From Minisyncoccota bacterium (lineage in GTDB: Bacteria; Patescibacteriota; Minisyncoccia; Phycocordibacterales; UBA9973), in NCBI GenBank assembly GCA_031413715.1, contig JANOFO010000010.1, positions 302 through 64,301 on the forward strand: DNA of 64,000 nt. The letters are read 5' to 3'. Below are positions 3,091 to 28,441 of the stretch, piece after piece; positions within the stretch are counted from its first letter, which is position 1; every line of letters starts with the position of its first letter. The translations under genes were made by a program, and so were the position numbers. The notes below the pieces were generated by a model. The model did not search any database. It was not told the origin of the DNA and saw only the letters and a program-made list of their open reading frames with translations.

Positions 3091-3687
3091 TTATTTGCGC
3101 TTCGAGATAAGATAGTGGGCAAGTTTAACGAAAAATGGGAGGAAAGAAAACCCAATGATAAGTAAAGCTGTCGGCAAGAGGAATCGATCAGGATTAGGGA
3201 TCATCCCTCCAAGATAATATCCGAGAAGTGGGACAACAATCGCCCAAAGAATCCCACCAGAGACATTGTAAAAGAAGAATTTTTTATAATCCATCCCTGC
3301 TACGCCTGCGACAATAGGAGCAAAGGTTCTCATGATCGGCACAAAACGCGCGGCTATTATAGTTATAGGCCCGCGCTTTTTATAAAAGTTCTCTGCTCTC
3401 TCTAGTCCCTTCTTATTAAAAAATGTCGAGTTTTCTCTCTCAAATAATTTTCTCCCCATTCGCTTTCCTATCCAGTATCCGGTATTGTCTCCAAGTATTG
3501 AACCAAGCGCAACAATAATAATAAGGAGAGGGAGGGAGAAGTACCCTTCTAATGCAAAAATTCCAGCAGCGAAAAGCAATGTATCCCCTGGCAAGAAGAA
3601 CCCGATCAGCAAGCCAGATTCGGCAAAGACAACTAAGAAAATTCCGAGGAGCCCTGCTGTTTTTATAATTAAGGTAGGATCAAGCAT
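3091..3687 (-). CDS. DedA/SNARE-associated family membrane protein
   Basis: LLGIFLVVFAESGLLIGFFLPGDTLLFAAG motif; start taken at the internal Met (MLDPTLII) so it does not overlap the next gene. Confidence 0.7.
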   Translation of the reverse strand: MLDPTLIIKTAGLLGIFLVVFAESGLLIGFFLPGDTLLFAAGIFALEGYFSLPLLIIIVALGSILGDNTGYWIGKRMGRKLFERENSTFFNKKGLERAENFYKKRGPITIIAARFVPIMRTFAPIVAGVAGMDYKKFFFYNVSGGILWAIVVPLLGYYLGGMIPNPDRFLLPTALLIIGFSFLPFFVKLAHYLISKRK

Positions 3688-6549: not shown

Positions 6550-6636
6550 GGAAGCGTGGCGGAGTTGGTCTATCGCACTCGTCTTGAAAACGAGAGTCCC
6601 TTTAAAGGACCGTGAGTTCGAATCTCACCGCTTCCG
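6550..6636 (+). tRNA. tRNA-Ser (anticodon TGA), type II with long variable arm
   Basis: Acceptor ggaagcg/cgcttcc, anticodon stem ctcgt/acgag with loop cttgaaa, variable arm gtcc-ttta-aagg-ac, T-arm gtgag-ttcgaat-ctcac, discriminator G. Confidence 0.85.
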
Positions 6637-8199
6637 CAATACTGGTGAAGAGGTGGCGAAAGCCATCTCTCTTCCTTTATCTGCTTGGGTTTTTAGCAGT
6701 TCGTAATCTTGATTCAGCTTCGGTACCCATTCAACCAATAATTGAGCCGCATCTGTATAGAATCTCCTTATTTCAAGCCTGTTTTGCTGTAAGTTCGTAA
6801 AGATTTGAGAAAAGAGTAATCGCTTCTCATCATTGTTAGCTTTCTCATAAATTTCTCGTGCTTTGTACGCGAGTTCATGCACCGCAACTCCTAACTGTAA
6901 GTATTCATCGTTCTTGTCGCCACAACGAACCAGGGCGCTTTCAAGAGCCTCTTCCTCGGTTATCAAATCTCCAATCTTCCTCTCGAAAAATTCTGCTGGA
7001 GCCTCATGATTTATTTTTGCTTCATAGAGCTTATCCTTTTTGGTGCGAACACCTTGGAGTAGTCCATTGATGCGCTTTACGTCATTTTCGCGTTCAGTAA
7101 TCTGCTCACTGTGCTGACTTCTTAAAATATCTTCGATAGCCGAAAGTACACGCTCATCTTTTGGGGCGATGCTATCGAAAATATCAATGAGCTGTAATTC
7201 AACCCTGTCTTCTCGAATACCTGTCTTTTGAGGGCAGTTCTTGAAGGCGGTACTGTTATTACAGTGCCCGTACCAATTACCTTTCTTTTGATACCACGTA
7301 ACCATCCCACCACATCCCTCACAGAAAATCTTGCTCTTAAATAAAGCGTTGTGCTTTTGATACTTTGGATTCTTCATCTGTCGTCTCAAGACAAGTTGCA
7401 CTTTCTCAAAAACATCCCTAGCGACAAGCGACTCGTGAGTGCCAGGGTACACTTCTCCTAGCCATCGTATTTTGCCGATATAGAAAGGGTCTTGGAGTAA
7501 GTTATAGATTCGAGATTTCAATAGCATTTTGCCGCTCGTATTGCGCAATCCAGCATCGTAAAACTCTTTTTCAAGTCTCTTGAGTGAATAATCTCCCGTT
7601 GCGTACAACTCAAACATTTTCTTTATATGCACGGCAACAGCGTCATTTGGCACGTGGATTTTGTGTCCTTTCTCTCCGTCACACCTGTAACCGATAAGTG
7701 GCTTGGCAGGTAATCCACCTTGTGCGATTTTTTCCTTTTGCCCCTTCTTCACTTCTTCTGAAAGATTTGTGACATATTTTTTTGCTAGGACAATTTCAAT
7801 ATCCCATCTGAATTTCTCATCAGATTTGGCATTTTTATGAATGACAAGATTTTGTTTTACAAAATGGATTTGTCTTTCCTCATTAGCCTCAAGCCAATCG
7901 TTGATAGCTAAAGCGTCTTTAAGGTTTCTGGTAAGACGGTCAACTTTTTCGCAAAGGATATTAGTGACTTTATTTTTCTCCGTGAATTTAATCATCTCAT
8001 CAAATACCTTACGTTGCTTTGCTCCGCTTGCTGATTCTGCCATCGAAAATATCTTTACGACGGTCAACTTCTTTTTATTATCAGCATACTCTTTGAGTAA
8101 TTTTTCCTGTGAATCGAGAGAATACCCAGTTTCTTCCTGTTCTCTTGATGAGACTCGACAGTACAGTACGGCTTTTGGTTTTAGTTGGTTAGTAGTCAT
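6625..8199 (-). CDS. large serine recombinase (integrase); its 3' end overlaps the tRNA-Ser 3' end
   Basis: Resolvase catalytic domain (VLYCRVSSREQ, DRLTRN), recombinase domain, zinc ribbon (CEGCGG...HCNN...CP), C-terminal coiled coil; 524 aa. Confidence 0.85.
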   Translation of the reverse strand: MTTNQLKPKAVLYCRVSSREQEETGYSLDSQEKLLKEYADNKKKLTVVKIFSMAESASGAKQRKVFDEMIKFTEKNKVTNILCEKVDRLTRNLKDALAINDWLEANEERQIHFVKQNLVIHKNAKSDEKFRWDIEIVLAKKYVTNLSEEVKKGQKEKIAQGGLPAKPLIGYRCDGEKGHKIHVPNDAVAVHIKKMFELYATGDYSLKRLEKEFYDAGLRNTSGKMLLKSRIYNLLQDPFYIGKIRWLGEVYPGTHESLVARDVFEKVQLVLRRQMKNPKYQKHNALFKSKIFCEGCGGMVTWYQKKGNWYGHCNNSTAFKNCPQKTGIREDRVELQLIDIFDSIAPKDERVLSAIEDILRSQHSEQITERENDVKRINGLLQGVRTKKDKLYEAKINHEAPAEFFERKIGDLITEEEALESALVRCGDKNDEYLQLGVAVHELAYKAREIYEKANNDEKRLLFSQIFTNLQQNRLEIRRFYTDAAQLLVEWVPKLNQDYELLKTQADKGREMAFATSSPVLRKR

Positions 8200-8216
8200 A
8201 AATTTAATAGGGAATG

Positions 8217-8573
8217 TTATTTCTTGGTGAAGTGTCTTGTAAGAAGCACTGTCACAAGAATCGTTATTGTTAAAATAAGCGCGAACACGATTACATTTCC
8301 ATATTCATTTATGCCTACTTGTGAAGGCGCGTTCTCTGCGGTAGTTGTCGGTTGAATTTTCAAGGCATCAAGCTCACTTCGGATTTCTTGGACTTGTGTT
8401 TTCAGTTCAGTATTTTCTTGCTGGAGATTTGAGCTTGGTTGCTGATTCTGCTGTCTTTGATAGTAAGTCTGTATACACGTTTGAAACGCAGCCTCATCAG
8501 TGGTCTTACAACCTGTTGCGGTATCTTGATATTCTTTTTTGAAGTGAAGTAGGGTTGCCATTGTTGCTGGCAC
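8217..8573 (-). CDS. hypothetical Gln-rich coiled-coil protein with C-terminal TM helix
   Basis: ORF only; compositional features. Confidence 0.3.
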   Translation of the reverse strand: MPATMATLLHFKKEYQDTATGCKTTDEAAFQTCIQTYYQRQQNQQPSSNLQQENTELKTQVQEIRSELDALKIQPTTTAENAPSQVGINEYGNVIVFALILTITILVTVLLTRHFTKK

Positions 8574-8940
8574 CTACAGCTATCCATAATGCAAAAAGGA
8601 GTAGCCGAGGAGCCTGCTACCCACAAGATTGAATTGCACGAGGCAACCAATTGCGGAGGTCTCGACTACTCCTTTTCGCCCACAATTGGGGCTTAAAAAA
8701 GCAGAGACCTCGTGCACTGTTCAAAACTTATGGGTAGCATAGTAAGTATAGCAAGATGGCAGGTTTTGGCAAGTCTACTTTTTCAGATGTGGATAACGCA
8801 TCTCTTTGTAGTAGGCGTTGAAAACTTCCATAACAGTGTTTCGGAATTTCTCTGCGGGGCTGATTTCACTCCTAATTACTTTTTTATTTTTTCGCATAAT
8901 TCTAGTTGGTTAAAAATAATAATTACTATAGGGGGCAATT

Positions 8941-10686
8941 TTACCCATCATCAGCCCCAAGGGATGTTAGGGAGCAGAACATGCTGTTTTTACCGCCCTT
9001 CTTTGTGAAAAGCTGTGAGTCCTTAATCATCTCCTCAATGGCGGTCTTGAATGTGGAATGACCTGTTTTTGCACCAGTCTTTTCAACCAATTTCCATATC
9101 TCACTTTTGATTAAAGGTGTTGGCGATGCCTCTAATACTTGTTTAATAGCGACCTTCAACACTTCTTTCTTGCTCGTTTTTCCTTTGCTTCGTCCTCCAT
9201 ATTCAAAGTGCCCCTTAACGCTATCGGAGTGAAAGTTGACTACAAAAGGTTCCATTTCCTGCGCTTCTCGTAATTTATTTTGGTATATAACGACACTGGC
9301 ATCATTGCCTTTTCTATCAACTGCAAGATGACAATCAACCTGCGCAAGAATATCTGATGAGCCACGCATTTCTTGAGACGAGGTGCTAGTATCGTTTCCT
9401 TTCTTACGATGATGGTGTATGACGATGACAGCAATACCATGATTAGTAATTTCTTTTAGAAATTTCATCACTCCGCGCATTTCAGTTGCTGAATTTTCAT
9501 CTGCATTGTGAATGCAATTAAGAGCATCAAAAATGACAAGTTCAATGCTTTTACTTTTGGCATATTCAATGAGTTTTCCTACGCTCTCCTTTGTGAGCAT
9601 AAAATCTTTTTTTGAAGAGATAAAAATAGGCAGCTCTGCATTCTGTAAAAGCAACTTCGCTCTATCTTTCAAAATCCGTGGATGGTTCTCTTCATCAATA
9701 ATTAGCACTGGGCTTTGCCTAGTCTGAAATTCACCAAATACTTTTTCGCCCCCAGCTATCTTTAATGCAATATCCAGAGTAATAAAAGTCTTATAAGACC
9801 TCGGTACTCCAGAAATGATTGTGAGAGCTTCGTGTGGAATCAAACTCTCCACAAGCCACTCTGTATTTTTATATTCAGTCGTAACTAGCTGTGAAAGTGG
9901 TATTGCATCTATGCCACGGCTAGTTTTAGATTCGGTTTTTCCCGCTCTCTGTTTCAACTCTCGATTAGCGATACTGTTGAAGACTGTTTTTAATTCTTTC
10001 TCTGGAAGAGGTGGCTTATTATTTTGATTCCAGCGCTGCATACCAAACCACACCATCTCCCAAGTATCTTCTGGAAGATAGCCAAGCATTTTCCCTGCCA
10101 TCTGCGCCGATACCTCATTTCTACTTCCTTCCAGCACTGGGCTTTCGATGGTGGTTTTCCAGTCGGCAGGTTTTTCATTTTCTTCTTCAAGTACCCATTG
10201 TGGCAGGTCTGCAAAGCTAGAATCATCGGGAGAAATAATCCACTCGTAGTAATTTCCAGATTTGTGTAAGGACGGAGGCATTACTACATATCCGCCATCA
10301 GCGCGGATGTCTACTTTAGGTAAAATACCTCCTCTGGTTTTTACTTCTTTTCCTGGATGTTTATAAAAATAATGCGAACCACCTCGACCTGTTCGTGAGA
10401 CTACCGTAGGCGGTAATTCACGGGAGATACTTTCAGTAGTGTCTATATCCACAACAACAATTCCAGATATAGCGCCTGTAATAACTCCTATGTTTGCTTT
10501 TGGGAATTGCTTAAACCATTCCTCGATTTGTTCCTTTGAAGCACGGGTAGCTTGAAATGGCTTCCATTCTTTAATAAGTGGGGTTTTCCCAGCCCCTCTT
10601 ATTGGAATCACAGAGAATCCCAAGTCGTAATACCGTAGTGCAGCTATTAGGTTTTGGTTGTTATTTTCCATAAAATTATTTGGCAT
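8941..10686 (-). CDS. bifunctional primase-polymerase (Prim-Pol N-terminal domain) fused to a RecA-like AAA_25/DnaB-like ATPase; mobile-element replication protein
   Basis: N-terminal YYDLGFSVIPI...GK.P prim-pol motif; Walker A SGVPRSYKTFITLD and Walker B VLIIDEEN in the C-terminal half. Confidence 0.7.
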   Translation of the reverse strand: MPNNFMENNNQNLIAALRYYDLGFSVIPIRGAGKTPLIKEWKPFQATRASKEQIEEWFKQFPKANIGVITGAISGIVVVDIDTTESISRELPPTVVSRTGRGGSHYFYKHPGKEVKTRGGILPKVDIRADGGYVVMPPSLHKSGNYYEWIISPDDSSFADLPQWVLEEENEKPADWKTTIESPVLEGSRNEVSAQMAGKMLGYLPEDTWEMVWFGMQRWNQNNKPPLPEKELKTVFNSIANRELKQRAGKTESKTSRGIDAIPLSQLVTTEYKNTEWLVESLIPHEALTIISGVPRSYKTFITLDIALKIAGGEKVFGEFQTRQSPVLIIDEENHPRILKDRAKLLLQNAELPIFISSKKDFMLTKESVGKLIEYAKSKSIELVIFDALNCIHNADENSATEMRGVMKFLKEITNHGIAVIVIHHHRKKGNDTSTSSQEMRGSSDILAQVDCHLAVDRKGNDASVVIYQNKLREAQEMEPFVVNFHSDSVKGHFEYGGRSKGKTSKKEVLKVAIKQVLEASPTPLIKSEIWKLVEKTGAKTGHSTFKTAIEEMIKDSQLFTKKGGKNSMFCSLTSLGADDG

Positions 10687-10858
10687 TGTCTTTATTTGAT
10701 TCCTGATGGAGACGCAAATTTATTTTGGCGAGCGTAACGTAAAATGTTGCAAAGTCTTTTAGAAGTTTCTGTATCTCACTTTCAGAACGTCCCACAAATA
10801 CACCCGTCTCTTCAATAGGGATTCGCAGCTTCTCAAGTTGTTGAGCTGTGAATTCCAT
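10676..10858 (-). CDS. small hypothetical protein, translationally coupled to the primase gene
   Basis: Start taken at the internal Met (MEFTAQQ); the upstream part of the annotated ORF overlaps the preceding gene. Confidence 0.25.
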   Translation of the reverse strand: MEFTAQQLEKLRIPIEETGVFVGRSESEIQKLLKDFATFYVTLAKINLRLHQESNKDNAK

Positions 10859-10859
10859 A

Positions 10860-11102
10860 TTATTTGAGGGAATACAATCTATTTTTAAGCTGGCGAAAAT
10901 TTTGAAAAAGCGTTTGAATCGGAACATTAACAGCCTTGTCCTGCCAAAAGTCCTCAATCACTTTCTTGATGTCGTCAGTTGCGGAAAATACAAACTCGAC
11001 CCGCTTTTCGCTGGTTCGCTCCAAATCTAGCAACTCAAATTTGAGTGTGAGCAGCAAGGCTGCCAAGCCAGTGTCGCCGATGAATATCTTTGCGTTTTCC
11101 AT
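10860..11102 (-). CDS. small hypothetical protein
   Basis: ORF in a tight operon with the prim-pol gene. Confidence 0.3.
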   Translation of the reverse strand: MENAKIFIGDTGLAALLLTLKFELLDLERTSEKRVEFVFSATDDIKKVIEDFWQDKAVNVPIQTLFQNFRQLKNRLYSLK

Positions 11103-11254
11103 ACTGCGCCAGCATACTTTGGAGCAGGGTTAGGTTTATACATCAGCTTTGTGAGCCAATAAAAATAAATGATGGATAGCGTTACAGAAGAAAACAGAAA
11201 AATCCACCCATTTTAAGAGTGGCTAACTTTTTGCCTCATTGGGACTAACCCAAA

Positions 11255-11980
11255 TTAAGAGCGTATCACTAACATAAAACCATTTTGTGCCAGAATTTCG
11301 ATTGGTGCACCAATTTTTTTAATAGCATCTCTAAAATCTTGGACGGCATCTCTAACGCTTCGGTCAGTAGTGACTGGCTTATCGTCATATTCTTCGGAAT
11401 TTTTTACAAATTTACCTGCGATTGCCAGCTCCCAGATGGGTTTAAAAGCGCCTTCACGTCCAACAATTCCTTTTTTCTCTATCCGTCGAGCTTCCCACAA
11501 TAAGGCAAACATTTCCCCTCTACCTTTAGCTTTCTGGAATTTATGAAATTTATTACCGTGTGATATGCGACAAGCCTTTTTGTCAAAGAATACAGATACC
11601 TCATTTGTTACTGATTGACTTGTTTCTGGTACTGGCAATTTACTTTTATTTATCAAAATCTCATATACTTCAATATCCTCATCCGTCTGCGTATTTTCGC
11701 GTGCAACAATAAATTCTTTCTTTCCATCCTCTTTAATTTCAAATGTGCCCCAACAATACTTATATTTATTCAAAAAACCCTTCTCTTTAAGACGAAGTAA
11801 GGTGTTACGAGTATCAGGTAGGTCAAAATCTTTGGCGGTTAAGTGCTCAATGGGTACATAGAAAGGATTGGTTTTATAAGTGTGAAAATGCTCGGAAATA
11901 ATCCCCGTAAGCAGTGAGTCTTTTTCTTCGATACTCATCTCCATTTTCATAATTAAAGTCATTATATCAGAATATGCCAA
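11255..11980 (-). CDS. hypothetical protein, possible N-terminal winged-helix domain
   Basis: ORF; helix-rich N-terminus; no confident family. Confidence 0.35.
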   Translation of the reverse strand: MAYSDIMTLIMKMEMSIEEKDSLLTGIISEHFHTYKTNPFYVPIEHLTAKDFDLPDTRNTLLRLKEKGFLNKYKYCWGTFEIKEDGKKEFIVARENTQTDEDIEVYEILINKSKLPVPETSQSVTNEVSVFFDKKACRISHGNKFHKFQKAKGRGEMFALLWEARRIEKKGIVGREGAFKPIWELAIAGKFVKNSEEYDDKPVTTDRSVRDAVQDFRDAIKKIGAPIEILAQNGFMLVIRS

Positions 11981-12027
11981 TACTTGCCACAGGTGAATAA
12001 AAGAGCTACACTACAAAGGCATATCTT

Positions 12028-12222
12028 ATGAAAGAAGAAAAATACTTAACACTAAAACAAGCAGCCGAAAAATTGCATGTAAAGATGCGTACAATTTACC
12101 GTTATGTTGCCGAGAAAGAACTGCGCGCCACAAAAATCGGTTCTTGGAGAGTTGAGGAGAAAGACCTTCAGGATTTTATTGACTCCCGCTCAAACATTGG
12201 GCAACGTAAACGCTCCAAGTAG
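12028..12222 (+). CDS. excisionase-family / MerR-like HTH DNA-binding protein
   Basis: LTLKQAAEKLHVKMRTIYRYVAEKELRATKIGSWRVEEKDL is an HTH_17 excisionase-type helix-turn-helix. Confidence 0.6.
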   Translation: MKEEKYLTLKQAAEKLHVKMRTIYRYVAEKELRATKIGSWRVEEKDLQDFIDSRSNIGQRKRSK

Positions 12223-12228
12223 TCGTCT

Positions 12229-15200
12229 ATGAGTACATCACCCTACAATCGAGGTTCAGAATGGAGGAAGTGGGATTTGCAGATTCACACGCCTGCTTCC
12301 GCGCTAAATAACGGTTTCGGTTCAGACTGGGATACATACTTACAAAAACTCTTCAAAGCAGCAATAAAAGAAGACATTGCTGCGGTTGGTGTTACTGACT
12401 ATTTCCACATCGAGGGATACAAAAAGGTTAAATCTTACCTAGGTGACACCGCCAAGATGAAGGCACTATTTTCCGATGAAGAAAGAGAAGCCATTTCAAA
12501 AATACTTATTTTGCCGAACGTAGAGTTCAGACTCTTTCCAATAAATGGCAGCCGTCTAAATTTTCACGTCATATTTTCTGACACGGTTTCAGAGAGAGAT
12601 ATTGAAGATAATTTTCTTCATAACCTTCACTTCGTTCGGGAAGGTAAACCATTTGAGCCAGATGAAAAGAGCAAGCTTAAAATTGGCAACCTTGAGGAAC
12701 TTGGAAAAAAACTTAAAAGCGAGCATGAGCCTTTCCGAACAGACAGTGACCTATTCGTTGGAATGAAAAATGCCGTAGTTTCCGATGAAGAAATTTCAGA
12801 AGTATTGAGTGCAAGACCATCTGCCTTTGCAGGTAAATACGTGCTAGTAATGCCATGCGATGAGGACTTGAGCACTATTCCCTGGGATGGACAAGACCAC
12901 AACACCCGCAAGAAGATGGTACAAAAAACCAACTTCTTTCTCTCATCAAACAGGAATACTATCGACTGGGGTTTGGGCAAGAAACATGAAAATTCAGAAG
13001 ATTTCAAAAATGAATTCAAGTCTTATAAACCTTGTTTGTGGAGTTCTGATGCGCATGACTTTGATAAATTATTCAAACCCGATGAAAATCGTTTTTGTTG
13101 GGTAAAAGCTGACCCCACGTTTGCTGGTCTTCGCCAAATCATTAACGAACCTGAACAGAGAGCTTTCGTTGGAGAACAGCCCCCAAACTATAAGTATGAC
13201 CATCTAGTCATAGAAAAAATTAGTATCCCCACTTCAAATGGATGGTTTAGTGAAAATCTGGAATTGGAACTAAACAGAGACTTGGTAACCATTATTGGTG
13301 GCAGAGGTTCTGGTAAGTCCGCCCTAGCAGAGATGATTGCCTATGGAGGAGGAAGTTGGAGTGGAGGCGAAGAAGCCTTTGTTACGAAAGCCAGTGACCA
13401 CGCACAGGGTATTGAAGGTACGGAAATTACTCTTACCTGGAGTGATGGGCACACAACCACATTTCGTGTAGGCGAAAACCAGGGCGATGAGAAAAGTATT
13501 CGCTATCTTTCTCAAAACGAAATTGAAAGACTTTGCTCACATAAGAATAGTAAAGTTCTTCTTGAACAGATTGAAAGTGTTATTTTCCAAGCTTTGGATG
13601 AGACCGAACGAATGGGCACCTCATCATTTTCTGAACTCACTTCTAAAACCCTAAAGGGATTTAAATTAGAAAAGGAACAGGAAGTGAGAAAGATAAAATC
13701 TAGCGCAAATAATCTTGCATCACTACTCGAAGCAATACGACAGAAACCAGAAAAAGAGAGAACTCTTAAAGATAAAGATGTTGAGTTGAAAAAGCTCAAA
13801 AAGAGTCTCCCTGAACTTCCCGCAGAAGACAAGAAGGGTCAAGACGAACTTGCATCATTGTTATCATTAAAAACAAAGTTTGATGAGAAAATTATCGGAC
13901 TCCAAGCAAAAATTGCCGACCTTTCTGAAGTTACAACAAAGATAGGTCTTTTCCGTAGTGATGTAACGAAATTCGAGAAGGATGTAAATGTTTCAGTTAA
14001 AAAACTTCTCCCAGACTTTGGCTTATTCGCTGTGGGTCTCGATACTTCGAAGCTTGAAGGAGCAATAAAAAAAGAGAGCGGTGAAGTCGCTGACGCGCTA
14101 AAAGCATTGAAAGAGGGCGACAAAAATAAGAACGCTCAACTTTTGGGTATTGAAGTTGCAGAACTAGTATTTCCGAATGCCACAAAACTTGCAGAGGCAA
14201 TAAAGAAAAAACAGGAAGAAACTAAAGCTTCCGAGACTACTAAAATTAAGTACCAACAACAGAAAAAGACGATTGCTGAACTAGAAGCAGTAATAAAGTC
14301 ACTAGAAGTTGAAATAAAGAAAATCAATGAAGAAAGTCTGCCTGAAAGTGAAAAGGCAAAAGCTGATTGTGTAGAGGCTTATTGTGCATACATCGCTATT
14401 CTTGAACGAGAAAAGACAGAGCTTGAGAAACTTTATGAACCATTACAGAGAAATCTCCAGTCAGGTACAGAAACTAATAAGAGATTGGAATTTGAAGCAC
14501 GTCTTGATTTTGAGGTTGAGAATCATATCGAGAGAGGGTTAGGAATAATTGACCGTAATAAAAAAGGTAACTTTAAAGATAAACCAGCGTTAAAAGAAGC
14601 GTTAGAAAAATTCTGGAGCAATATCAAGAAGGATGGATTTTCCACCACAAAAATAAAGGAAGAGCTTGCCGTTCTTGATTCACAGTTTCAAGTTTATGAA
14701 GGTAAACCACGAGATGTTCAAGAACAACTACGTGCTGGCTACGGCGTGGGAGATTTCTATGAATGGTTATTTGACCCAACAAATGTAGATGTTGTCTCTA
14801 CAATCAATTTTGACAAAACAGACCTCTATCTTCTCTCACCTGGCAAGAAAGGAATCGTTCTACTTATTCTTTTCTTGCAAATAGATGGTGACGATACGCG
14901 CCCACTCATCATAGACCAGCCAGAAGAGAATCTAGACAATCTGTCTGTATACCAAGATTTGATTACTTTCTTCAAGGAAAGGAAGCTTTACCGTCAAATT
15001 TTTATTGTTACTCACAACCCTAACCTTGTAGTTAACACGGATGCAGAGCAAGTAATCGTAGCCAACTATAACGGCACTGGTACACCTCGCATTCAATACT
15101 CTGCTGGGTCACTTGAGAATCAAGCCGCTGAATTGCCAGGTGTTGAACTGGAAGATTTAGAGGACGGCATTATTGAGCAGGTCTGCAAAATTCTTGAAGG

Positions 15201-15267
15201 TGGAGAAACTGCGTTTGAAAGTCGTAAGAGGAAATACGAACTGTCAGTAAAAAGCTTCAAAAAGTAA
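12229..15267 (+). CDS. PHP-domain phosphoesterase fused to a coiled-coil ABC/SMC-like ATPase; Ppl-like candidate anti-phage protein
   Basis: PHP motifs WDLQIHTPAS, VGVTDYFH, NFHVIF, WSSDAHDF; Walker A GGRGSGKS; ~500 aa K/E-rich coiled coil; signature LSPGKKG, Walker B LIIDQPEENLD, H-loop VTHNP. Confidence 0.65.
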   Translation: MSTSPYNRGSEWRKWDLQIHTPASALNNGFGSDWDTYLQKLFKAAIKEDIAAVGVTDYFHIEGYKKVKSYLGDTAKMKALFSDEEREAISKILILPNVEFRLFPINGSRLNFHVIFSDTVSERDIEDNFLHNLHFVREGKPFEPDEKSKLKIGNLEELGKKLKSEHEPFRTDSDLFVGMKNAVVSDEEISEVLSARPSAFAGKYVLVMPCDEDLSTIPWDGQDHNTRKKMVQKTNFFLSSNRNTIDWGLGKKHENSEDFKNEFKSYKPCLWSSDAHDFDKLFKPDENRFCWVKADPTFAGLRQIINEPEQRAFVGEQPPNYKYDHLVIEKISIPTSNGWFSENLELELNRDLVTIIGGRGSGKSALAEMIAYGGGSWSGGEEAFVTKASDHAQGIEGTEITLTWSDGHTTTFRVGENQGDEKSIRYLSQNEIERLCSHKNSKVLLEQIESVIFQALDETERMGTSSFSELTSKTLKGFKLEKEQEVRKIKSSANNLASLLEAIRQKPEKERTLKDKDVELKKLKKSLPELPAEDKKGQDELASLLSLKTKFDEKIIGLQAKIADLSEVTTKIGLFRSDVTKFEKDVNVSVKKLLPDFGLFAVGLDTSKLEGAIKKESGEVADALKALKEGDKNKNAQLLGIEVAELVFPNATKLAEAIKKKQEETKASETTKIKYQQQKKTIAELEAVIKSLEVEIKKINEESLPESEKAKADCVEAYCAYIAILEREKTELEKLYEPLQRNLQSGTETNKRLEFEARLDFEVENHIERGLGIIDRNKKGNFKDKPALKEALEKFWSNIKKDGFSTTKIKEELAVLDSQFQVYEGKPRDVQEQLRAGYGVGDFYEWLFDPTNVDVVSTINFDKTDLYLLSPGKKGIVLLILFLQIDGDDTRPLIIDQPEENLDNLSVYQDLITFFKERKLYRQIFIVTHNPNLVVNTDAEQVIVANYNGTGTPRIQYSAGSLENQAAELPGVELEDLEDGIIEQVCKILEGGETAFESRKRKYELSVKSFKK

Positions 15268-15295
15268 GTCTGCTTTTAATGAAACATCTTTTTGA

Positions 15296-15324
15296 TTGAC
15301 ATATACCCCTAGGGGGTATATACT
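15296..15324 (+). promoter_or_regulatory. sigma70-like promoter (TTGACA-17-TATACT) with embedded CsoR-type operator palindrome ATATACCCCTAGGGGGTATAT
   Basis: Perfect 21-bp GC-tract palindrome at 15301-15321 sits exactly between the -35 and -10 hexamers; the csoR ATG is 8 nt after the -10. Confidence 0.55.
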
Positions 15325-15331
15325 CTTTGGT

Positions 15332-15607
15332 ATGAAATACTTAAACGAAAAAGATAAGGCAAAGATAATTCGCCGTCTTAAACTCATTGAGGGGCAAGTT
15401 CGTGGATTGCAAAAGTTAGTTGAGAATGACACCTACTGCATAGATGTCATCACCCAAACCTCTGCTGTAAAGCAGGGTCTTTCAGGCGTTGAGGATGTTC
15501 TTCTTGAAAACCATCTTGGTCATTGTGTGCGCCATCAAATGTCTTCAGGACAAGTTGATAAGGCGCAAGAAGAAGTGTTGAAAGTTTATAAGCTAAAGCG
15601 CAAATAA
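15332..15607 (+). CDS. csoR: CsoR/RcnR family copper-sensing transcriptional repressor
   Basis: [29 protein letters not shown]...HCVRH, a DUF156 metal-sensor fold; ATG at 15332 rather than the upstream TTG. Confidence 0.8.
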
Positions 15608-15612
15608 ACATT

Positions 15613-17907
15613 ATGAGCCACACAGAGACTTACAAAATAAGAGGAATGCACTGTGCATCATGCGCGGGCATCATTGAAAAAACTCTCAAGAAAACGGATG
15701 GTGTCAGTTCTGTTGAAGCAAACTATGGAACCGAGGCTGCAAAGATTACTTTTGATGAATCAAAGACAAACCCACATCACCTTTCAGAAAAGATAGAGAA
15801 GTTAGGTTATTCACTTATTGTTCCTACTGCCGATGAAATGGGTATGTCTGCCAACGAGCACGCGGCACACCTTGGTTTGAATCAATCAAAGAAAGAAAAG
15901 TTAGCGGAACTTTCAGATATGAAAAATAAAGTCATATCGGTAATTCCTCTTACCATTTTTAGTATTTTCGTGATGGGCTGGGATATTCTTGCTCAATTTA
16001 ATATCGTTTCTGTCGCTCCTTATTTCTGGAGCGAGTTTTTTCACCACCTGTTGCCTCTGATGGCTACCTATACCTTGTTCGTAGTTGGTAAACCGTATCT
16101 TCTGGGTTTTTACCGATTCCTTCGCTATGGCAAAGCAAATATGGATACGCTCATTGGTATTGGTACATCGGTTGCGTATCTCTACAGTTTTATTGTTACC
16201 GCCTTTGAAGAATCGCTCCGACCATTCATCAGTGTTGAGCATACGTACTATGACGTTACGATTGTCGTTATAGCTTTTATTACTCTCGGCAAATATCTGG
16301 AGGCGCGTTCCAAAATTAAAACAGGAGACGCAATTGAAAAGCTCTTAAATCTTCAAGCAAAAACTGCTTTAGTCATACGTGATGGTAAAGAAGTGGAAGT
16401 ACCTATTGACCAGGTGGTTCACGGTGACTTGATTGTGGTTAAACCAGCAGGCAAAATCCCCGTTGATGGCGTACTTACAGAAGGCTCATCATACGTAGAT
16501 GAAGCAATGATTTCTGGGGAACCCGTCCCCGTGGAAAAGAATGTGGGAGACACTGTGGTCGCTGGAACCATCAATACCACTGGCTCATTCACTTTCAAAG
16601 CAACAAAAGTTGGTTCGGAGACACTTCTTGCAGGTATCATCAAAATGGTGGAAGAGGCTCAAGGAAGTCGAGCACCCATACAAGCATTAGCAGATAAAAT
16701 TTCAAGTGTCTTTGTTCCAGTTGTTTTAGTTCTTTCGTTCGTTGCACTCGGCTTATGGATTGCCATTGGAACCCAGTATTTTGGCTTCTCGCAGGCGTTT
16801 TCATACGGCTTGGTGTCGTTTGTGGGAATCCTTGTGATTGCTTGCCCCTGCGCTTTGGGACTTGCCACACCAACAGCAATCATAGTAGGGGTTGGTAAAG
16901 GCGCAAAGGAAGGTATCCTCATCAAAGATGCAGGGACACTGGAAAAACTCCATAAGGTAAATGTGTTGGTTGTAGACAAAACAGGAACCATTACGAAAGG
17001 AAAACCAGAATTAGTATCAATCCAAAACTCCTCTCAAAAAAGTGATGAGGAGCTGGTTTCGTTACTTGCCTCACTTGAAAAAAAGTCAGAGCATCCTATT
17101 GCTCACGCCGTAGTTTCTTATGCAAATGAAAAGAACATTCCTCTGGCATCTGTAAGTAATTTTGACGCTATTAAAGGCAAAGGCTTGAAAGGGATGATTG
17201 AAAACACAGAATACTACGCAGGCAATACGAAGCTCATACAAGACCTCAATCTTTCATTTGATGTTCGTACTCTTGAAAAAGAAACTATGGAAGGCAAAAC
17301 GCCCGTCATTCTTGCAACTAAAGAAAAAGTATTGGGTGTGGTGATGGTAGCTGATGCTATAAAACCAGAAGCGATTGAAGCGGTGTCACGTCTCCATAAG
17401 CTCGGAATTAAAGTAGTGATGCTTACAGGGGATAATAAAAACACAGCAGCGTATGTTGCAAACCAGGTTGGTATTGATGAAGTGATGGCGGAAGTGATGC
17501 CAGAAACAAAATTGAATAAAATCAAAGAGCTGCAATCGCAAGGCAAAATTGTTGCTATGGCAGGTGATGGAGTAAATGACGCTCCTGCTCTTGCCCAGGC
17601 TGATGTTGGTATCGCTATGGCAACGGGAACCGATGTAGCGATTGAAAGCGCAGGCATCACACTTCTTCATGGTGATATTTCAAAACTCGTCAAAGCTGTG
17701 AATCTCTCGAAAATGACAATGCGCGGTATTAAACAAAATCTTTTCTGGGCATTTATCTACAACATTGTGGGTATCCCGCTTGCGGGCGGATTATTCTTCC
17801 CGATTTTTGGATGGCTGCTGAATCCAGTATTTGCAGGTTTAGCGATGGCGTTTTCAAGCGTGTCAGTGGTCGGTAACTCGCTTCGCCTTAAAGCAAAGAA
17901 ATTATGA
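15613..17907 (+). CDS. copA: copper-translocating P1B-type ATPase CopA
   Basis: N-terminal [15 protein letters not shown] motif (ACPCALG), [13 protein letters not shown]. Confidence 0.9.
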
Positions 17908-18296
17908 TTTCAAATAAATTAAAAACTATATTTGCGGTTTCTATACCAGTTTTCATAGCTCACGGAATAGAGGAGTATTTTACTGGTTTATATAATGTTG
18001 ATTCTTTCTATCAATCTTTTTCTAATCCCAAACTGGTATTTGTTATTATGGTTCTTCTTTTAGCAAATATGCTACTGATAGTTTCTTATTTTCTTGTCTT
18101 AAAAAACAAATGGGTGTTTGGATTATCAGTTTTACTTGGACTAGCCCTGATTTTTGAATTAGTTCACATTTACGAAGCTATCAAGATAGGGGGATATTAC
18201 TCTGGATTATATACCGCATTGATTTTTCCAATCGTAGGGTTTCTGCTTTGGAAAGAATTATTCAAACATTATAAAGGTCGGAAATTATTAGCTTAA
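17904..18296 (+). CDS. membrane protein (4 TM), unknown; part of the cop operon
   Basis: Hydrophobic ORF overlapping the copA stop. Confidence 0.35.
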
Positions 18297-18309
18297 CTAA
18301 AAAATTATT

Positions 18310-18531
18310 ATGAAAATATCAAAAGTATTACATACCGTTAGTGTTATCGTTGGGTTCATTGGAGTAATTACATTTCTAGGGGCAATGTTGGGTGGAGCTG
18401 ACAATAGCGTATTTGGAGTTACAAAGATAGATGCTCTTTTCTGCACAGCAATTCTTATTCTGATTGCTATCTGGATGCAAGTCGCAACAATGCATCATAT
18501 GATGCTTGAAAAAAGAGGAGAAATTGTTTAG
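18310..18531 (+). CDS. small membrane protein
   Basis: Two TM helices. Confidence 0.3.
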   Translation: MKISKVLHTVSVIVGFIGVITFLGAMLGGADNSVFGVTKIDALFCTAILILIAIWMQVATMHHMMLEKRGEIV

Positions 18532-18549
18532 TCACACCACCACGAAACT

Positions 18550-19569
18550 ATGAAAACATATACCTTTCACATAAACGGAATGCATTGCAAGGCTTGTATC
18601 TTTCTTACAGAAAGCGAGTTGATGGATGTTCCTAATGTTAGTTCTGCAAAATCAAATCTTAATACTCATACAGTAGAACTCACGGGAGATTTTGGAAATA
18701 AATCAGAAGAAGTAATTGCATCAGAATTGACTGATGTTCTCAAAAAACACGGCTACACCCTCTCTGTAGAAAAGCAAAAAAAAACTAAAAATTGGTCTGA
18801 TTTCAAAATTGCTATACCCGTAGCAATTGGGTTTGCCGTTCTTTTCGTTGCTCTGCAAAAAATGGGCATAGTGAACCTCGTAAATACGAGCAATGTTTCC
18901 TATGGTACTGCATTTGTAATTGGCATTATCGCATCGCTTTCAACCTGTATGGCGGTGGTGGGTGGGTTGCTTCTTTCTATGTCGGCAACATTTGCTAAAG
19001 AGGGAGATAAGATAAAACCACAACTTCTATTTCACGGAGGCAGAATTGTCTCATTCTTTATTCTCGGTGGTGTAATTGGAGCAATCGGTTCTGCTTTCGC
19101 ATTAAATACATCGGGGACATTTATATTGAGTGTAATTATTGGCATAGTGATGCTTATTCTTGGAATCAATCTTTTGGATGTATTCCATTTTGCAAAAAAA
19201 CTCCAGCCATCAATGCCAAAATTCTTTTCACGACACGCTCTTGGTGTATCGAAGTTCAATCATAGATTCACTCCACTTTTAGTAGGCATAGTCACTTTCT
19301 TTTTGCCTTGTGGGTTTACCCAATCAATGCAGATTTATACTCTTTCCACAGGGAGTTTTCTTAAAGGTGGCTTCACAATGCTTGCGTTTGCTTTAGGAAC
19401 TTTGCCCATACTTGCTTTAATTAGTTTCAGTTCTTTCAGTATTCATAACAGCTCCAAAGCAGGTATTTTCTTCAAGTCAGCAGGGCTTATTGTAATAATG
19501 TTTGCCCTGTTTAATCTTATCAATAGCTTGGTGGTAATCGGTTGGATACCACCTATATTTAATTTTTAG
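18550..19569 (+). CDS. HMA-domain-fused polytopic membrane protein (CcdA/DsbD- or TauE-like), putative metal handling
   Basis: N-terminal GMHCKAC heavy-metal-associated motif; Cys in TM helices (LSTCMAVVGG, FFLPCGFTQ). Confidence 0.45.
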   Translation: MKTYTFHINGMHCKACIFLTESELMDVPNVSSAKSNLNTHTVELTGDFGNKSEEVIASELTDVLKKHGYTLSVEKQKKTKNWSDFKIAIPVAIGFAVLFVALQKMGIVNLVNTSNVSYGTAFVIGIIASLSTCMAVVGGLLLSMSATFAKEGDKIKPQLLFHGGRIVSFFILGGVIGAIGSAFALNTSGTFILSVIIGIVMLILGINLLDVFHFAKKLQPSMPKFFSRHALGVSKFNHRFTPLLVGIVTFFLPCGFTQSMQIYTLSTGSFLKGGFTMLAFALGTLPILALISFSSFSIHNSSKAGIFFKSAGLIVIMFALFNLINSLVVIGWIPPIFNF

Positions 19570-19581
19570 TATAATTACTTT

Positions 19582-19971
19582 ATGAAAGGAACGATAATAT
19601 CAATCATAGCTGTAGTTGTCCTCATCGGAGGGGCTATTGTACTTACCCAAGGGGGTGGAAAGACAAATGACAATATACCCGTAAAAAATGTAACTGTGGT
19701 AGATGGAAAACAGATTATTGAAGTAACGGCAAAAGGTGGTTATCTTCCAGAGAAGAGTATCGCTAAAGCAGGCATTCCTACTGTATTAAGGTTCAATACG
19801 AGTGGAACCTTTGATTGTTCGGCTTCTGTGCGTATTCCTAGTATGGATATTAGTAAAAATCTTCCTGCGTCAGGAGCTACCGATATAGAACTTGGCAACC
19901 CTAAACTCGGCACACTGCAAGGAACCTGTGGAATGGGGATGTATCCTTTTGAGATTGAATTTCAGAGCTAG
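19582..19971 (+). CDS. secreted/anchored putative copper-binding protein with C-terminal CGMGMY motif, cupredoxin-like size
   Basis: N-terminal TM/signal; Cys/Met-rich TCGMGMYPF near the C-terminus; no His at all; sits in the cop cluster. Confidence 0.35.
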   Translation: MKGTIISIIAVVVLIGGAIVLTQGGGKTNDNIPVKNVTVVDGKQIIEVTAKGGYLPEKSIAKAGIPTVLRFNTSGTFDCSASVRIPSMDISKNLPASGATDIELGNPKLGTLQGTCGMGMYPFEIEFQS

Positions 19972-20665
19972 AAACAAAAAACCAAATAGGTAAAATTTCC
20001 CACTATAGGTATATAGAATTTTACCCATAAGAAAGAGAGGTCTACGCCCTTTTTAGTGTATCTGTTTATATTTGGTGCTAGATGGTACACAAACGTACAA
20101 CCTGGTACACATTTTGCTTATACCAGTAGGCTATCAGGTTGGTACTTTGATGGTATAGACATGACAATGAATACCTTGACCCAAATCTAGGAACAGACAC
20201 TACGTACTGGTACGTACCCAGACAAGAAAACTTTTTCTAGAAATAGCTCCTGTGACATGGGCTGTCCCTCCTAAAATAAAATCTCGCGCCAGGAAAACAC
20301 CCACCACCCCAAATACGAAAAATGGAGCTTCTATGCTCCTTTCCTTGAACCGAGTATAATAAGCCTATTAGGGGGCTGTTTAAGCCACAATAGCGAGCAA
20401 CTGACGCATCTGTTGCAGGGAGACGCTAGGATAAGGGAAGATTTCTTCCCATTTAACAGTTCGTACATAGTCCCCCCAAGCCCGCTAGCATAAATTGCTT
20501 TGCAATTTTGCGCGTAAGCGAGAAAGAGAACTACTTCTCTTTCGTGTGCGATCAATAGATTGTAACGTGAGGAAGATTCGAAAGACTTTTCGCTATCGAG
20601 TTTACTCGATCGAAAAGTACCTGGCTACGTGGTAGCTGAAAAGCGTAATCGCGGTCTCTCATTTG

Positions 20666-25564: not shown

Positions 25565-28441
25565 TTATAATCCTGTCACTACTTTAAGCATATGCCGTGT
25601 CTTCGAGCCGACGATACCGCTCGGTGGCTTAACAAAATATTTCAACTGGAATGCACGGACCGATACTTGTGTTTGCCTGCCATATTTTCCATCAATGATG
25701 TCCTGGTGACTTCCCTCATCGGCAAGGAGTTGTTGGAGACTCTTGACCGCTTCGCCAGCATCTCCTGGTTTCAAGTCTTTTTCGAGCACTCGAGCATCAC
25801 CCGGGATATCAAGGGTGACAAGGGATTGTGATACGAGGTTAAGTTGTTTCTGAGTTGCTACATCTGTGACACCAGTGATCGGCAGTTTGTATTTTGACTG
25901 AAATTGTTTCAAACCTTTTTCTGTCACGGCACCAAACTTTCCGTCGATAATAGTTGTCGGATAGAACTCGCCATCTAATGCAAGTACATGCTGAACATGT
26001 TCGATTTCGATATGAGTATCGCCTTTTTCCCAAACAGTTGTGAAATGTTCTTCTACGCCGAGTGGCATGATAACCGGTGTCTCACGCAACACCACTTGTC
26101 CAACTGATCCGCCACCCGATGATTTTCCGGAAGAACCTCCTCGTGAAGAAGAAAGTACTGCAATCGGTGCAAGTGAGACGCGGACTGATTCTGAATACGT
26201 TCTAGCGTGGTCGTATGAATAGAATGCGTAATAGTAGGTGGTGCCATTGTTCACATCCGTGTCAGTGAATGTTTCGCTGTCGCTTTCAAAAACGACGGTG
26301 CCATCCGCGGGCGTTGTCGGATAATTTCCCGCTTTCTTAACAATGATTGTTCGAACAAAATCGGCTTCATTTGGATTGTTCCAGGTGAAGACAATCTGCT
26401 CATCGAGGCCGGTGGCATTCACGAATGTCGGATGTGCGATTGGAAGTGAGGTTGTCGTTTCGGGAATGAACGGTTCTGCTGTTCCAGAATCTCCTCCTGT
26501 TGTGGAATTTCCGCTTTCAACAACCAACCCGTTGCCAGAATTGTCATTGATTATTTCGTTGAGAGAATCATTAGGCGATCCCACTGGAACCGAAGCAAGA
26601 GTCGTCGCTGAAACGACATTAGAAAGAACTGACCAGTCGCCAGTCTCGTACTTTTGTTTGAGAGCGAAATAATACATGGTGTTTGGACTAAGTCCTGCAA
26701 CCAGATATGTTCGCGCGGTTCCAGATGGCGAAAGTTCTGGGTATATAATCGGCGTTAGTTGTGCGGATATTGCAGCGTTCCAATTCGATTCAGTGATTAG
26801 ACTCGTGCTGTAACGCACTTCAGTGAACATACCCGCGTCGGAATCTGCTGATGAAGTGTTCCATGAAAGCTGTGCCGATGTGGCGTCATGTCCAGAAACG
26901 GAAAGGTTCGAGATCGCGCTCGGTGCAGAAACTGTTGTTGTGGCATGCGTCGTCGTGAAAGTATGATCATCCGAATAAGTAATGTCGCCTGCCACAGTTA
27001 CTGCCTTGATGCGATAGTGGTACGTCGTACTCGGGACGAGATCGTCCAAGCCAACACTCTGAGAAGACTGACTTGTTTGCATTGTTGTCGTCTGTCCGTA
27101 TTGGGTTGAGATTCCGTATTCAACGTGTCCTGTCGCAGCTATGTCCGTCGTCCATGAGACATTTGCGCTCGTAGTACTGACATTACTCGAAGAAACCGAG
27201 AGAATAGTTGCCGGAGTGGTGACGAAGATCGGCACGATAAGCGTCGAGAATTCATGAAGGTTCGACACTGTTGCAACGCTTGCGGGAGTGGGCTTGGACT
27301 TCACGCGGAAGTAATAACTAGTGTCGGGTGAAAGATTTGAAATGGTAACTGAATGGTTTGTGGTGAGATTTGAATTGAGAGTCGTATGCAAGCCAAGATT
27401 GATATTGTTGCCATATTCCGCTTGCGAATCGCTTAGTAGATCCGTCGTCCATGTGATTGTTGCAGATGTTTCCCCGATAGTCGAAGCCTCGACGCTTGAG
27501 ACAAGGAGTGTCGGCGCGATCAGTGTTCCTGTCGGAGCTGTTACGATTGTCTCACCTGTTCCCACAAGTGCCGCTGTGGTGAATGTCTCATCAGGCGTGT
27601 ACGCCGTATTTCCGATACCGTCGTGCGACGTAATGCGGTAGTGATACGTCGTGTTCGGTAACAAACTTGAGAGAGTAACGCTGTGAGCTGGTGCGTAGTC
27701 ACTGCTTGCATTAACCGTTGTGCCATAGTTCATTGTTGTGCCATATTCCACATACCCGTTAGCAACCTGGTCGGTTGTCCACGATATTCCGGCAGAAGTG
27801 GTCGTGACAGGAGAAACCGAAACTGTGAGGATGGTCGGCGGATTCGTATCAGCTTGCACCACTTCTATCGCGGTCGTGAACGAATGACCACAAGAATCCG
27901 AGGTATTATTGAAAAGGTCAGTCGCGTCAATACAGTAATAATAGGTGGTTGCTGGAGATAAGTTGAGCATCGTCGCTACATGAACAAGAGCACCGCCTGT
28001 CCCAAGAGTTACTGTTGATCCATAACTTGTCGTCGTTCCATAACGAAAATGAGAAACTGCGAGCTCGTTTGTCACCCATGCGACGGTTGCCTCAGTCGGC
28101 AACAGCGATGCCGAGACAATATCGGTTATGACCGGCGGTGTCGTATCGAAAACTGTTATTGTAGGAACAGTCGTCTCTGATCCTGTTGATGTATTAGCAG
28201 AGACAGTTGTATCCCCAACAGTGGTTGAGGTCGTATCAGTACTCGTCGTCGTTTCCGTCGTCACTGTAGGAGTAGGTTCTGGTGCCGGAGGTGTAGCCTC
28301 GACAACTGTCGGCGCGGAATTGGTCGTCCCTACATCCACTTCACCGAGTGCGAGCGCCGGAGCGATCGGCGCGAAAAGAAAAGTTATGATAATAATGAAA
28401 GATGAAAACGATTGTAATTTTTTCATAATGCATTGGGCCAA
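25565..28441 (-). CDS. large secreted surface protein: Thr-rich linker, multiple Fn3/Ig-like repeats (recurrent TTYHYRI), C-terminal tandem peptidoglycan-binding (PG_binding_1-like) domains
   Basis: Signal peptide; repeated ...TTYHYRI / TTYYYC blocks; C-terminal ITGVTDVATQKQL and DGKYGRQTQVSVRAFQLKY. Confidence 0.55.
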   Translation of the reverse strand: MAQCIMKKLQSFSSFIIIITFLFAPIAPALALGEVDVGTTNSAPTVVEATPPAPEPTPTVTTETTTSTDTTSTTVGDTTVSANTSTGSETTVPTITVFDTTPPVITDIVSASLLPTEATVAWVTNELAVSHFRYGTTTSYGSTVTLGTGGALVHVATMLNLSPATTYYYCIDATDLFNNTSDSCGHSFTTAIEVVQADTNPPTILTVSVSPVTTTSAGISWTTDQVANGYVEYGTTMNYGTTVNASSDYAPAHSVTLSSLLPNTTYHYRITSHDGIGNTAYTPDETFTTAALVGTGETIVTAPTGTLIAPTLLVSSVEASTIGETSATITWTTDLLSDSQAEYGNNINLGLHTTLNSNLTTNHSVTISNLSPDTSYYFRVKSKPTPASVATVSNLHEFSTLIVPIFVTTPATILSVSSSNVSTTSANVSWTTDIAATGHVEYGISTQYGQTTTMQTSQSSQSVGLDDLVPSTTYHYRIKAVTVAGDITYSDDHTFTTTHATTTVSAPSAISNLSVSGHDATSAQLSWNTSSADSDAGMFTEVRYSTSLITESNWNAAISAQLTPIIYPELSPSGTARTYLVAGLSPNTMYYFALKQKYETGDWSVLSNVVSATTLASVPVGSPNDSLNEIINDNSGNGLVVESGNSTTGGDSGTAEPFIPETTTSLPIAHPTFVNATGLDEQIVFTWNNPNEADFVRTIIVKKAGNYPTTPADGTVVFESDSETFTDTDVNNGTTYYYAFYSYDHARTYSESVRVSLAPIAVLSSSRGGSSGKSSGGGSVGQVVLRETPVIMPLGVEEHFTTVWEKGDTHIEIEHVQHVLALDGEFYPTTIIDGKFGAVTEKGLKQFQSKYKLPITGVTDVATQKQLNLVSQSLVTLDIPGDARVLEKDLKPGDAGEAVKSLQQLLADEGSHQDIIDGKYGRQTQVSVRAFQLKYFVKPPSGIVGSKTRHMLKVVTGL

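Follow-up and report, generated by a model that had tools for sequence, protein, structure and literature searches.

We analysed a 64,000-nucleotide stretch of the Minisyncoccota contig JANOFO010000010.1 (hereafter the window, to which all positions refer). Within it, a gene for a large serine recombinase (int) runs at its 3′ end into a tRNA-Ser gene and forms one end of an apparent integrated element. The initial annotation had placed such an element, with a large serine recombinase, at the 3′ end of this tRNA-Ser(TGA), and the tRNA, the integrase domains and the boundaries of sister elements all agree with that placement. The features at the two ends of the element are as follows.

6550-6637, plus strand: tRNA-Ser(TGA) (ARAGORN; Rfam RF00005 covers 6550-6636, 60 bits)
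6625-8199, minus strand: large serine recombinase, integrated form, 524 amino acids (aa), ending ...SSPVLRKR* (Pfam, PHROG)
6634-6637: attachment site attL, core CCGC, with the crossover dinucleotide within these 4 nucleotides (nt); identity with other elements starts or stops here
20380-20484, minus strand: detached 3′ end of int, 34 codons RAWGDYVRTVKWEEIFPYPSVSLQQMRQLLAIVA and a stop at 20380-20382; also the P arm of attP
20482-20485: attR core CCGC and right end of the element, with host B′ beginning at 20486; identity with the sister elements L005 and L089 ends exactly there

The strand and coordinates first given for the integrase stand, while its overlap with the tRNA measures 13 nt (6625-6637) and not 12 nt, the TGA stop occupying 6625-6627. 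The antisense strand of the tRNA T-arm and acceptor stem supplies the last residues and the stop of the 524-aa protein. Pfam recognises a Resolvase domain (PF00239, E 1.5e-20, residues 10-162) and a Recombinase domain (PF07508, E 2.8e-10), with Zn_ribbon_recom (PF13408) scoring 24.8 bits, slightly below its cut-off of 25.3, and the match to the PHROG integrase has an E of 1e-69. Residues R15, V16 and S17, and likewise C293, C296, C313 and C322, are invariant in an alignment of 39 sequences, and in the AlphaFold model of a relative (P0087) residues 348-395 and 401-452 form long helices. All recognised domains are retained in the 524-aa form.

A genome scan with the integrase alignment returned 79 loci (labels such as L001 denote loci or contigs, P0064 and P0087 proteins). 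The best of these was L005, from Parcubacteria C7867-001, whose integrase is 96% identical to that of the window; the integrases of L004 and L005 are 96-97% identical to it and lie in other genomic neighbourhoods. Alignment of the window with L005 by blastn covers 6609-8774 (92.6% identity, int and its neighbour), 8885-10892 (77.5%, the Prim-Pol region), 11925-12299 (67%, the HTH_17 region) and 19991-20485 (86%, the tract 3′ of the copper genes). Identity climbs to 98-100% in the last 200 nt and then stops abruptly at 20485/20486. A metagenome scan with the last 27 nt of the tract recovered a third integrated copy, L089, which ends at the same position and lies in host DNA unrelated to the other two flanks. 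Homology of the window with both L005 and L089 stops abruptly at 6637/6638 and 20485/20486, and the host flanks are unrelated. The window and L004/L005 part exactly at the tRNA end, the tRNA in the latter being Ser(CGA) and not Ser(TGA), and CCGC is present at both junctions in the window and in L005. These comparisons place the element at 6638-20485 (13.85 kb) and identify the tRNA-Ser(TGA) as the predicted host half (B arm) of attL, intact after insertion. Only its last 4 nt (CCGC) are common to the element, so the tRNA sequence would be unaltered by the insertion. A direct-repeat search of the window found no second copy of the tRNA 3′ end and the far end was therefore located by comparison; the missing repeat is expected, since this is a serine integrase with a 4-nt core. 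GC content marks neither boundary, as the shift across 6.6-20 kb that had been proposed as a check is absent (0.37-0.44 inside the element versus 0.35-0.44 outside).

Several assemblies also break at the left junction. Logan assemblies of SRR20217197 break in the tRNA T-arm, one contig ending at 6625 and the next starting at 6609 with a 17-nt overlap, whilst a contig of SRR20217205 ends at 6597; L001, L002 and L003 are contigs around 6609-6625. The breaks in the T-arm suggest an assembly-graph branch at the integration site.

When the two ends are joined as a circle (…20485 + 6638…), the integrase open reading frame (ORF) extends in frame to 555 aa, with no stop or frameshift, and ends …SSPVL-RAWGDYVRTVKWEEIFPYPSVSLQQMRQLLAIVA*. 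This in-frame reconstruction independently validates both boundaries. As integrated, the tail fragment has an in-frame stop immediately upstream and no start codon; a terminator scan found a minus-strand hairpin at 20339-20324 which, being placed past the tail stop, fits the terminator of a full-length gene. Read in this way, attP lies inside the integrase ORF, 34 codons ahead of its stop, and the overlap of integrase and tRNA is therefore not incidental. Integration would detach the last 34 int codons to the far end of the element, and a 'KR-stop' from the tRNA antisense would replace the tail. The tract 3′ of the copper genes, at first taken to be non-coding, thus holds the detached 3′ end of the integrase. 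The remaining body of the gene is evidently under purifying selection, judging by its codon differences from L005, of which 83 are synonymous and 19 non-synonymous. Taken together, we consider it highly probable that this is an insertion at tRNA-Ser by a serine integrase with attP in its own ORF, whose tail is detached on integration.

The C-termini of the 120 best database homologues of the integrase fall into three classes. Proteins of the first are about 520-530 aa long and end …LLRG*, …WLRR* and similar; those of the second run on into tRNA antisense, recognisable by a T-loop '…DSN…' signature; and those of the third (13 of the 120, ~552 aa) carry the tail 'LAW.D.LRT..W...FP.PS.SL.QI..LL'. 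A hidden Markov model (HMM) built from 12 of these 13 tails, with P0064 omitted and the window excluded, matches the minus strand of the window at 20484-20383 (E 2.3e-16). With the same model, detached same-strand tails were found 6-11 kb upstream of int in 22 of the 79 genomic loci (L005, L010, L011, L012, L013, L015, L016, L017, L021, L025, L028, L032, L033, L046, L047, L053, L054, L055, L062, L073, L076 and L082). A convergent tRNA 3′ end adjoins the 3′ end of int in about 42 of the 79 loci. Asn is the commonest target tRNA, followed by Gln and then by Ser, Tyr, Leu, Arg, Asp, Val and Glu; several loci for which ARAGORN reports no tRNA still have tRNA-like antisense past the int stop. The joined form has a natural parallel in L086 (9,039 bp), whose two ends repeat the same 55 nt, and in L087 from another sample, which is the same sequence, 100% identical, circularly permuted. 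The pair thus represents a circle of 8,984 bp in which the 553-aa integrase is intact and no tRNA is present. At least 1700 integrase homologues were found at E<=1e-20, mostly in bacteria of the candidate phyla radiation (CPR), and the closest relatives of the window integrase come from CPR/Patescibacteria. On sequence grounds we take the family to be a large, mainly CPR group of tRNA-targeting serine integrases with attP in their own gene.

Three loci of this family show more complex arrangements. L012 has a detached tail at 1834, an intact integrase at 9977-11638 with a tail of a different subtype, and a second integrase at about 18.7-20.3 kb abutting tRNA-Asn. This resembles a tandem array such as would arise if a second element entered the tRNA half of an existing attL. 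The integrases of L011 and L013 end in short P-arm-like peptides (…LLRTWDDVRMEIMRKNY*, …MLPLYHKIRTFF…) and not in tRNA antisense, with a canonical detached tail upstream; what was left of an older element may have been the target of these two.

Junction cores were read directly for the Ser, Asn, Tyr and Asp groups, replacing an automatic longest-common-substring detection that had returned spurious cores. The core is GCGG in the Ser group, TTGCTC in the Asn group (where Int ends …LLRG* and the tail begins LLAW…), TTGTGC in the Tyr group and 11 nt long in the Asp group. In all four groups, with the first tail codon (the one overlapping the core) as origin, the tRNA (B) arm has the T-loop motif (C/T)GAAC at +17-21 and the element (P) arm an equivalent CGAAC at +22-26, which supplies the conserved Arg-Thr codons of the tail. 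The distance of TTCGAAC from the crossover is thus 5 bp greater on the element side than on the tRNA side. In large serine integrases the zinc-ribbon-domain motif lies 5 bp nearer the centre of attB than of attP, an accepted criterion for telling the two site types apart (PMC11722253), and we infer that the T-loop TTCGAAC acts as this motif. The predicted attP junction is …CCAAGCCCGC|AATACTGGTG… (longer form ATAGTCCCCCCAAGCCCGCAATACTGGTGAAGAGG) and the predicted attB junction is …CACCGCTTCCGC|TAGCATAAATTGC… (longer form GAATCTCACCGCTTCCGCTAGCATAAATTGCTTTG).

The remaining features of the element lie between the integrase and the detached tail.

8217-8573, minus strand: coiled-coil protein of 114-118 aa (8217-8561 for the 114-aa form), directly upstream of int and co-oriented with it (ORF list; gene call in L001)
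8593-8773, minus strand: promoter-like TTGCCA-N17-TATACT (8773-8745), then a structured RNA leader of ~150 nt with its core at 8613-8739
8941-10686, minus strand: replication protein with Prim-Pol, PriCT_1 and AAA_25 helicase-type ATPase domains (Pfam E 2e-35, 1.2e-9 and 2.4e-27)
10676-10858, minus strand: small overlapping ORF of 60 aa, in the same order in L004
10860-11102, minus strand: DUF5659 protein (Pfam), in the same order in L004
11255-11950, minus strand: 231-aa orphan protein
12028-12222, plus strand: HTH_17 (MerR/excisionase-type) DNA-binding protein (Pfam E 6.6e-15; PHROG excisionase)
12229-15267, plus strand: 1012-aa Ppl-like ATPase (PADLOC Ppl E 2.4e-25; Pfam SMC_N, AAA_23)
15296-19971, plus strand: copper cluster of CsoR, CopA P-type ATPase, HXXEE protein, 73-aa ORF, HMA-DsbD_2 and cupredoxin (Pfam)
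19991-20382: conserved non-coding tract, 86-92% identical to L005 and L089 and up to 98-100% near its end

These genes form an integration module (int, the 114-aa protein and HTH_17), a Prim-Pol/helicase replication module, a Ppl-like defence gene and an exchangeable metal-resistance cassette, here for copper. The Prim-Pol/AAA_25 replication protein, the tiny coupled ORFs and the excisionase-family HTH protein of the initial annotation were all confirmed, the first of them also matching a PHROG DNA primase/polymerase. The PHP-ATPase fusion it described was borne out for the ATPase, the PADLOC Ppl match falling mainly over the C-terminal ATPase; the PHP domain went undetected by Pfam and by PDB sequence search, and in the L005 homologue (1029 aa) the PHP_C match is weak (E 0.15). 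Homologues of this protein are kept in the sister elements L005 and L089, and it is a candidate anti-phage defence gene. The 114-118-aa protein is kept beside int in L004 and L005; its only Pfam matches are weak ones to coiled-coil families, and it is a candidate accessory or directionality factor. HTH_17 is likewise a candidate regulator or directionality factor. The 231-aa protein matched no family in Pfam or PHROG.

The ~180-nt leader segment between the Prim-Pol gene and the 114-aa gene and int is better conserved across distant elements than the proteins are. Its RNA closes with a helix and a U-run (8609-8593) just upstream of these two genes. A covariance model of the leader found 11 loci (the window, L004, L005, L006, L009, L015, L016, L022, L040, L072 and L079), usually a few hundred nt upstream of int. 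Its closing helix, P1, has 94% of alignment cells paired and compensatory changes in 8/13 pairs, and P2 has 80% and 4/10. A central segment can pair either with the 3′ end, ahead of the U-run (helix b, 88% paired, compensatory pairs 6/13), or with an upstream strand (helix a, 79% paired, 4/10), so that helices a and b are mutually exclusive, and one of them is terminator-like. The observed covariation was reached in 0/500 shuffles, and slid controls were ~45% paired. No Rfam family matched the leader, whose form suggests an attenuator or a riboswitch-like element controlling integrase expression. At the right end, identity over 20241-20382 is 92-98%, equal to or higher than in the integrase gene (about 93%), and Rfam again gave no match in the tract. 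Five of the 56 GGTAC sites in the window fall within 135 nt (20084-20218), a cluster of candidate replication-origin repeats.

We then considered what the detachment of the tail might mean. Past the ~27-nt half-site, differences among 27 tails at the three codon positions are 0.46/0.34/0.64, as expected for a sequence shaped by protein-level selection and not just by a DNA site. The first nine tail codons differ less at third positions than those further on (0.47 versus 0.64), which is consistent with an added DNA-site constraint. An AlphaFold2 model of P0087 (82-sequence alignment) predicts three short helices at 518-551, with a predicted local distance difference test score of 83-90, after a disordered linker. 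One explanation is that the overlap of attP with the 3′ end of int is neutral compaction, the loss of the tail being either without regulatory meaning or inactivating, as in the archaeal 'suicidal' integrases. The presence of all catalytic and DNA-binding domains in the 524-aa form speaks for it, as does the reduced third-position change of the first nine codons, which a constraint on attP DNA predicts. However, the tail past the half-site is conserved as protein among integrases that are 40-60% identical and is predicted to fold, the arrangement is kept across at least four target-tRNA groups, and the truncated genes stay intact ORFs under purifying selection. Neutral compaction is a serious contender that we nonetheless judge somewhat less than likely. 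Alternatively, as the excised circle alone would make the full-length protein, the tail may couple the integrase to the physical state of the element. The proposal that the tail makes the activity, stability or direction of the integrase depend on the integration state is tentative and rather doubtful. Under such a scheme the 34-residue tail would be both a state sensor and a direction switch. Full-length integrase made from the circle would be competent for attP x tRNA integration, and the tail-less integrated form would differ in activity (excision, perhaps with HTH_17 or the 114-aa protein) or in stability. Expression of the integrase would in turn be gated by the covarying terminator/antiterminator leader RNA.

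A number of observations weigh against an insertion with a split integrase as set out above, or limit it. The crossover dinucleotide can be placed no more finely than the CCGC core, in which CG and GC are palindromic and CC alone is not. The B′ flanks of three near-identical elements (window 20486-20520, L005 and L089) share no sequence, and unconserved B′ flanks are unusual for serine integrases; because the three known flanks are unrelated, recognition would rest mainly on the tRNA T-arm/acceptor half (the B arm). In five loci (L018, L020, L023, L059 and L075) int is intact and full-length and no tRNA occurs within 10 kb; several of these loci belong to long contigs from metagenome-assembled genomes of Bacteroidota. 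The split is thus common but not universal in the family. The DNA of the tail exon is 100% identical to that of L005 although int differs in ~20% of codons, and part of the tail conservation may therefore be DNA-level constraint or recent recombination or exchange. Lastly, the empty tRNA-Ser site that the initial annotation had in view was not recovered: a metagenome scan for the host B′ flank, able to catch an empty site or attR, gave 0 matches, and exact-protein look-up of the flanking RuvX and S51 peptidase returned window-identical contigs only, which break in the tRNA or still hold the right end. A P-arm scan, able to catch a circular junction, did not find one for this exact element, returning the integrated copy L089 alone in metagenomes and nothing in viral contigs. 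With neither an empty site nor a circular junction, recent mobility of the window copy is deduced and not observed.

These last results would also suit a fixed island, whose genes are ancestral at the locus and no longer mobile, and the right end is likewise in place in a second sample (L084). However, the element has kept both ends intact, and across their junction the reading frame continues with neither stop nor frameshift. Moreover, the ancestral synteny that had been named at the outset as grounds for rejecting an insertion was not seen, near-identical elements occurring in three host contexts and at two tRNA-Ser isoacceptors (Ser(CGA) in L004/L005, with a third flank in L089). We regard a fixed island as improbable.

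Temperate phages often carry serine integrases, excisionase-type HTH proteins and primase-helicases, and all three have PHROG matches here, as a prophage or degraded prophage with a serine integrase would predict. Against this, Pfam and PHROGs found no capsid, portal, terminase, tail or other virion, packaging or lysis gene in 6638-20485, the sole 'structural' PHROG/Pfam match being a weak coiled-coil (E 1e-4). The related 8,984-bp circle is also without such genes, and viral-contig scans with the integrase and Prim-Pol gave no relatives, single-protein scans of this kind reaching close relatives only. A prophage is accordingly a very improbable explanation. PICI-type (phage-inducible chromosomal island) packaging genes were not found in the element, and Pfam searches of all ORFs in 6638-20485 found no relaxase, coupling protein or type IV secretion families. 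The element probably replicates on its own.

Finally, an element ending at about 15290, as first proposed, with the copper cluster and the non-coding tract as host DNA, has a strand switch and a new operon from 15296 in its favour and no GC shift to mark a boundary either way, and can be dismissed as next to impossible, since the sister elements share 19991-20485 and lose homology exactly at 20485, the detached tail at 20383-20484 completes the int ORF in frame, and L005 has another cassette between the Ppl gene and the tract. Because the distal end is at 20485, the copper cluster, already suspected of being cargo, lies inside the element as its cargo, together with most of the non-coding tract. 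The cassette in the matching slot of L005 consists of an ArsR regulator and a Cation_efflux (cation diffusion facilitator) transporter, and the slot is therefore one for exchangeable metal-resistance cargo. A distant member, L072 (integrase 44% identical, target tRNA-Asn), has a CsoR gene at 3291-3649 with 75% DNA identity to that of the window. Copper cargo may thus recur in the integrase family.

The host genes that flank the element encode a PilM fusion, RuvX, DUF5652, an S51 peptidase, ZIP and Fur, a set that identifies the host as a member of CPR/Patescibacteria. Further to the right, a 958-aa protein (25565-28441, minus strand) combines repeated Fn3/purple-acid-phosphatase-N domains with two peptidoglycan-binding domains, and GC content is raised around its gene (0.46-0.49 versus about 0.39 nearby). 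Beyond it lie a Mutator/IS256-type transposase (28681-29754) and, on the opposite strand, a 388-aa reverse transcriptase (RVT_1, 30299-31465), with a 540-bp non-coding gap between them. Near 30000, by this gap, lies the other end of the Logan contig that begins at 6609.

Serine integrases are major tools of genome engineering, and to our knowledge coiled-coil geometry and separate directionality factors are the only determinants proposed for their direction. If a large natural family changes the C-terminus of its own integrase on integration, this would be a new means of tying enzyme activity to the integration state. If the site reading is right, this would also be a natural integrase family that targets the near-universal T-arm/acceptor end of tRNAs with little need for a second half-site. 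Recognition of a conserved tRNA 3′ half, with the other half-site apparently free, would be relevant to the design of integrases with broad host range or predictable landing sites. As far as we know, the mobile elements of CPR/Patescibacteria are poorly known, and this family would be a widespread vehicle for metal-resistance and defence genes among them.

The integrase resembles those of phiC31, Bxb1, A118/LI and SPbeta in its Resolvase, Recombinase and zinc-ribbon domains and its long coiled-coil helices, and it shares with phiC31-type integrases short att sites, the lack of a long direct repeat and a motif 5 bp closer in attB. Unlike them, it targets the 3′ end of a tRNA gene and not a protein-coding or intergenic site, its attP lies in its own ORF so that the C-terminus is swapped on integration, its B′ half-site is apparently unconstrained and its hosts are mainly CPR/Patescibacteria. 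Tycheposons mostly use tyrosine recombinases (910/937) and leave partial-tRNA direct repeats (bioRxiv 10.1101/2020.12.28.424599). The present element is like tycheposons and PICI-like elements in its tRNA-adjacent site-specific integration, integrase, primase/helicase and exchangeable nutrient, metal or defence cargo. It differs in its serine integrase, in the lack of a tRNA repeat in the window and in that no PICI-type packaging genes were found. Mycobacteriophages with integration-dependent immunity carry attP in the repressor gene, the free and integrated forms of which differ in their C-terminus, and use a tyrosine integrase. Both systems place attP within a coding gene whose C-terminus depends on the integration state, although the gene split here is that of the serine integrase itself and there that of a repressor accompanied by a tyrosine integrase.

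The closest parallel in design is found in archaea, where the SSV-type 'suicidal' tyrosine integrases (SSV1, pTN3, pT26-2) have the recombination site in their own ORF and a tRNA target (PMC8371274, PMC7253208). The likeness extends to the partitioning of the gene to both ends of the element. However, the domains here are those of a serine recombinase and the hosts are bacteria, whereas SSV-type enzymes are archaeal tyrosine recombinases; and the part detached here is just the final 34 of 555 residues, whereas the SSV-type split separates essential parts of the protein. Reviews describe the self-splitting design for archaeal tyrosine integrases only (PMC8371274, PMC7253208), and in a literature search of incomplete coverage, which does not prove absence, we found no serine or bacterial self-splitting integrase and no tRNA-targeting CPR serine integrase. 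The element described here would thus extend self-splitting integrase biology beyond the archaeal tyrosine recombinases and, should the tail prove to act as a switch, would be their bacterial serine-recombinase counterpart.

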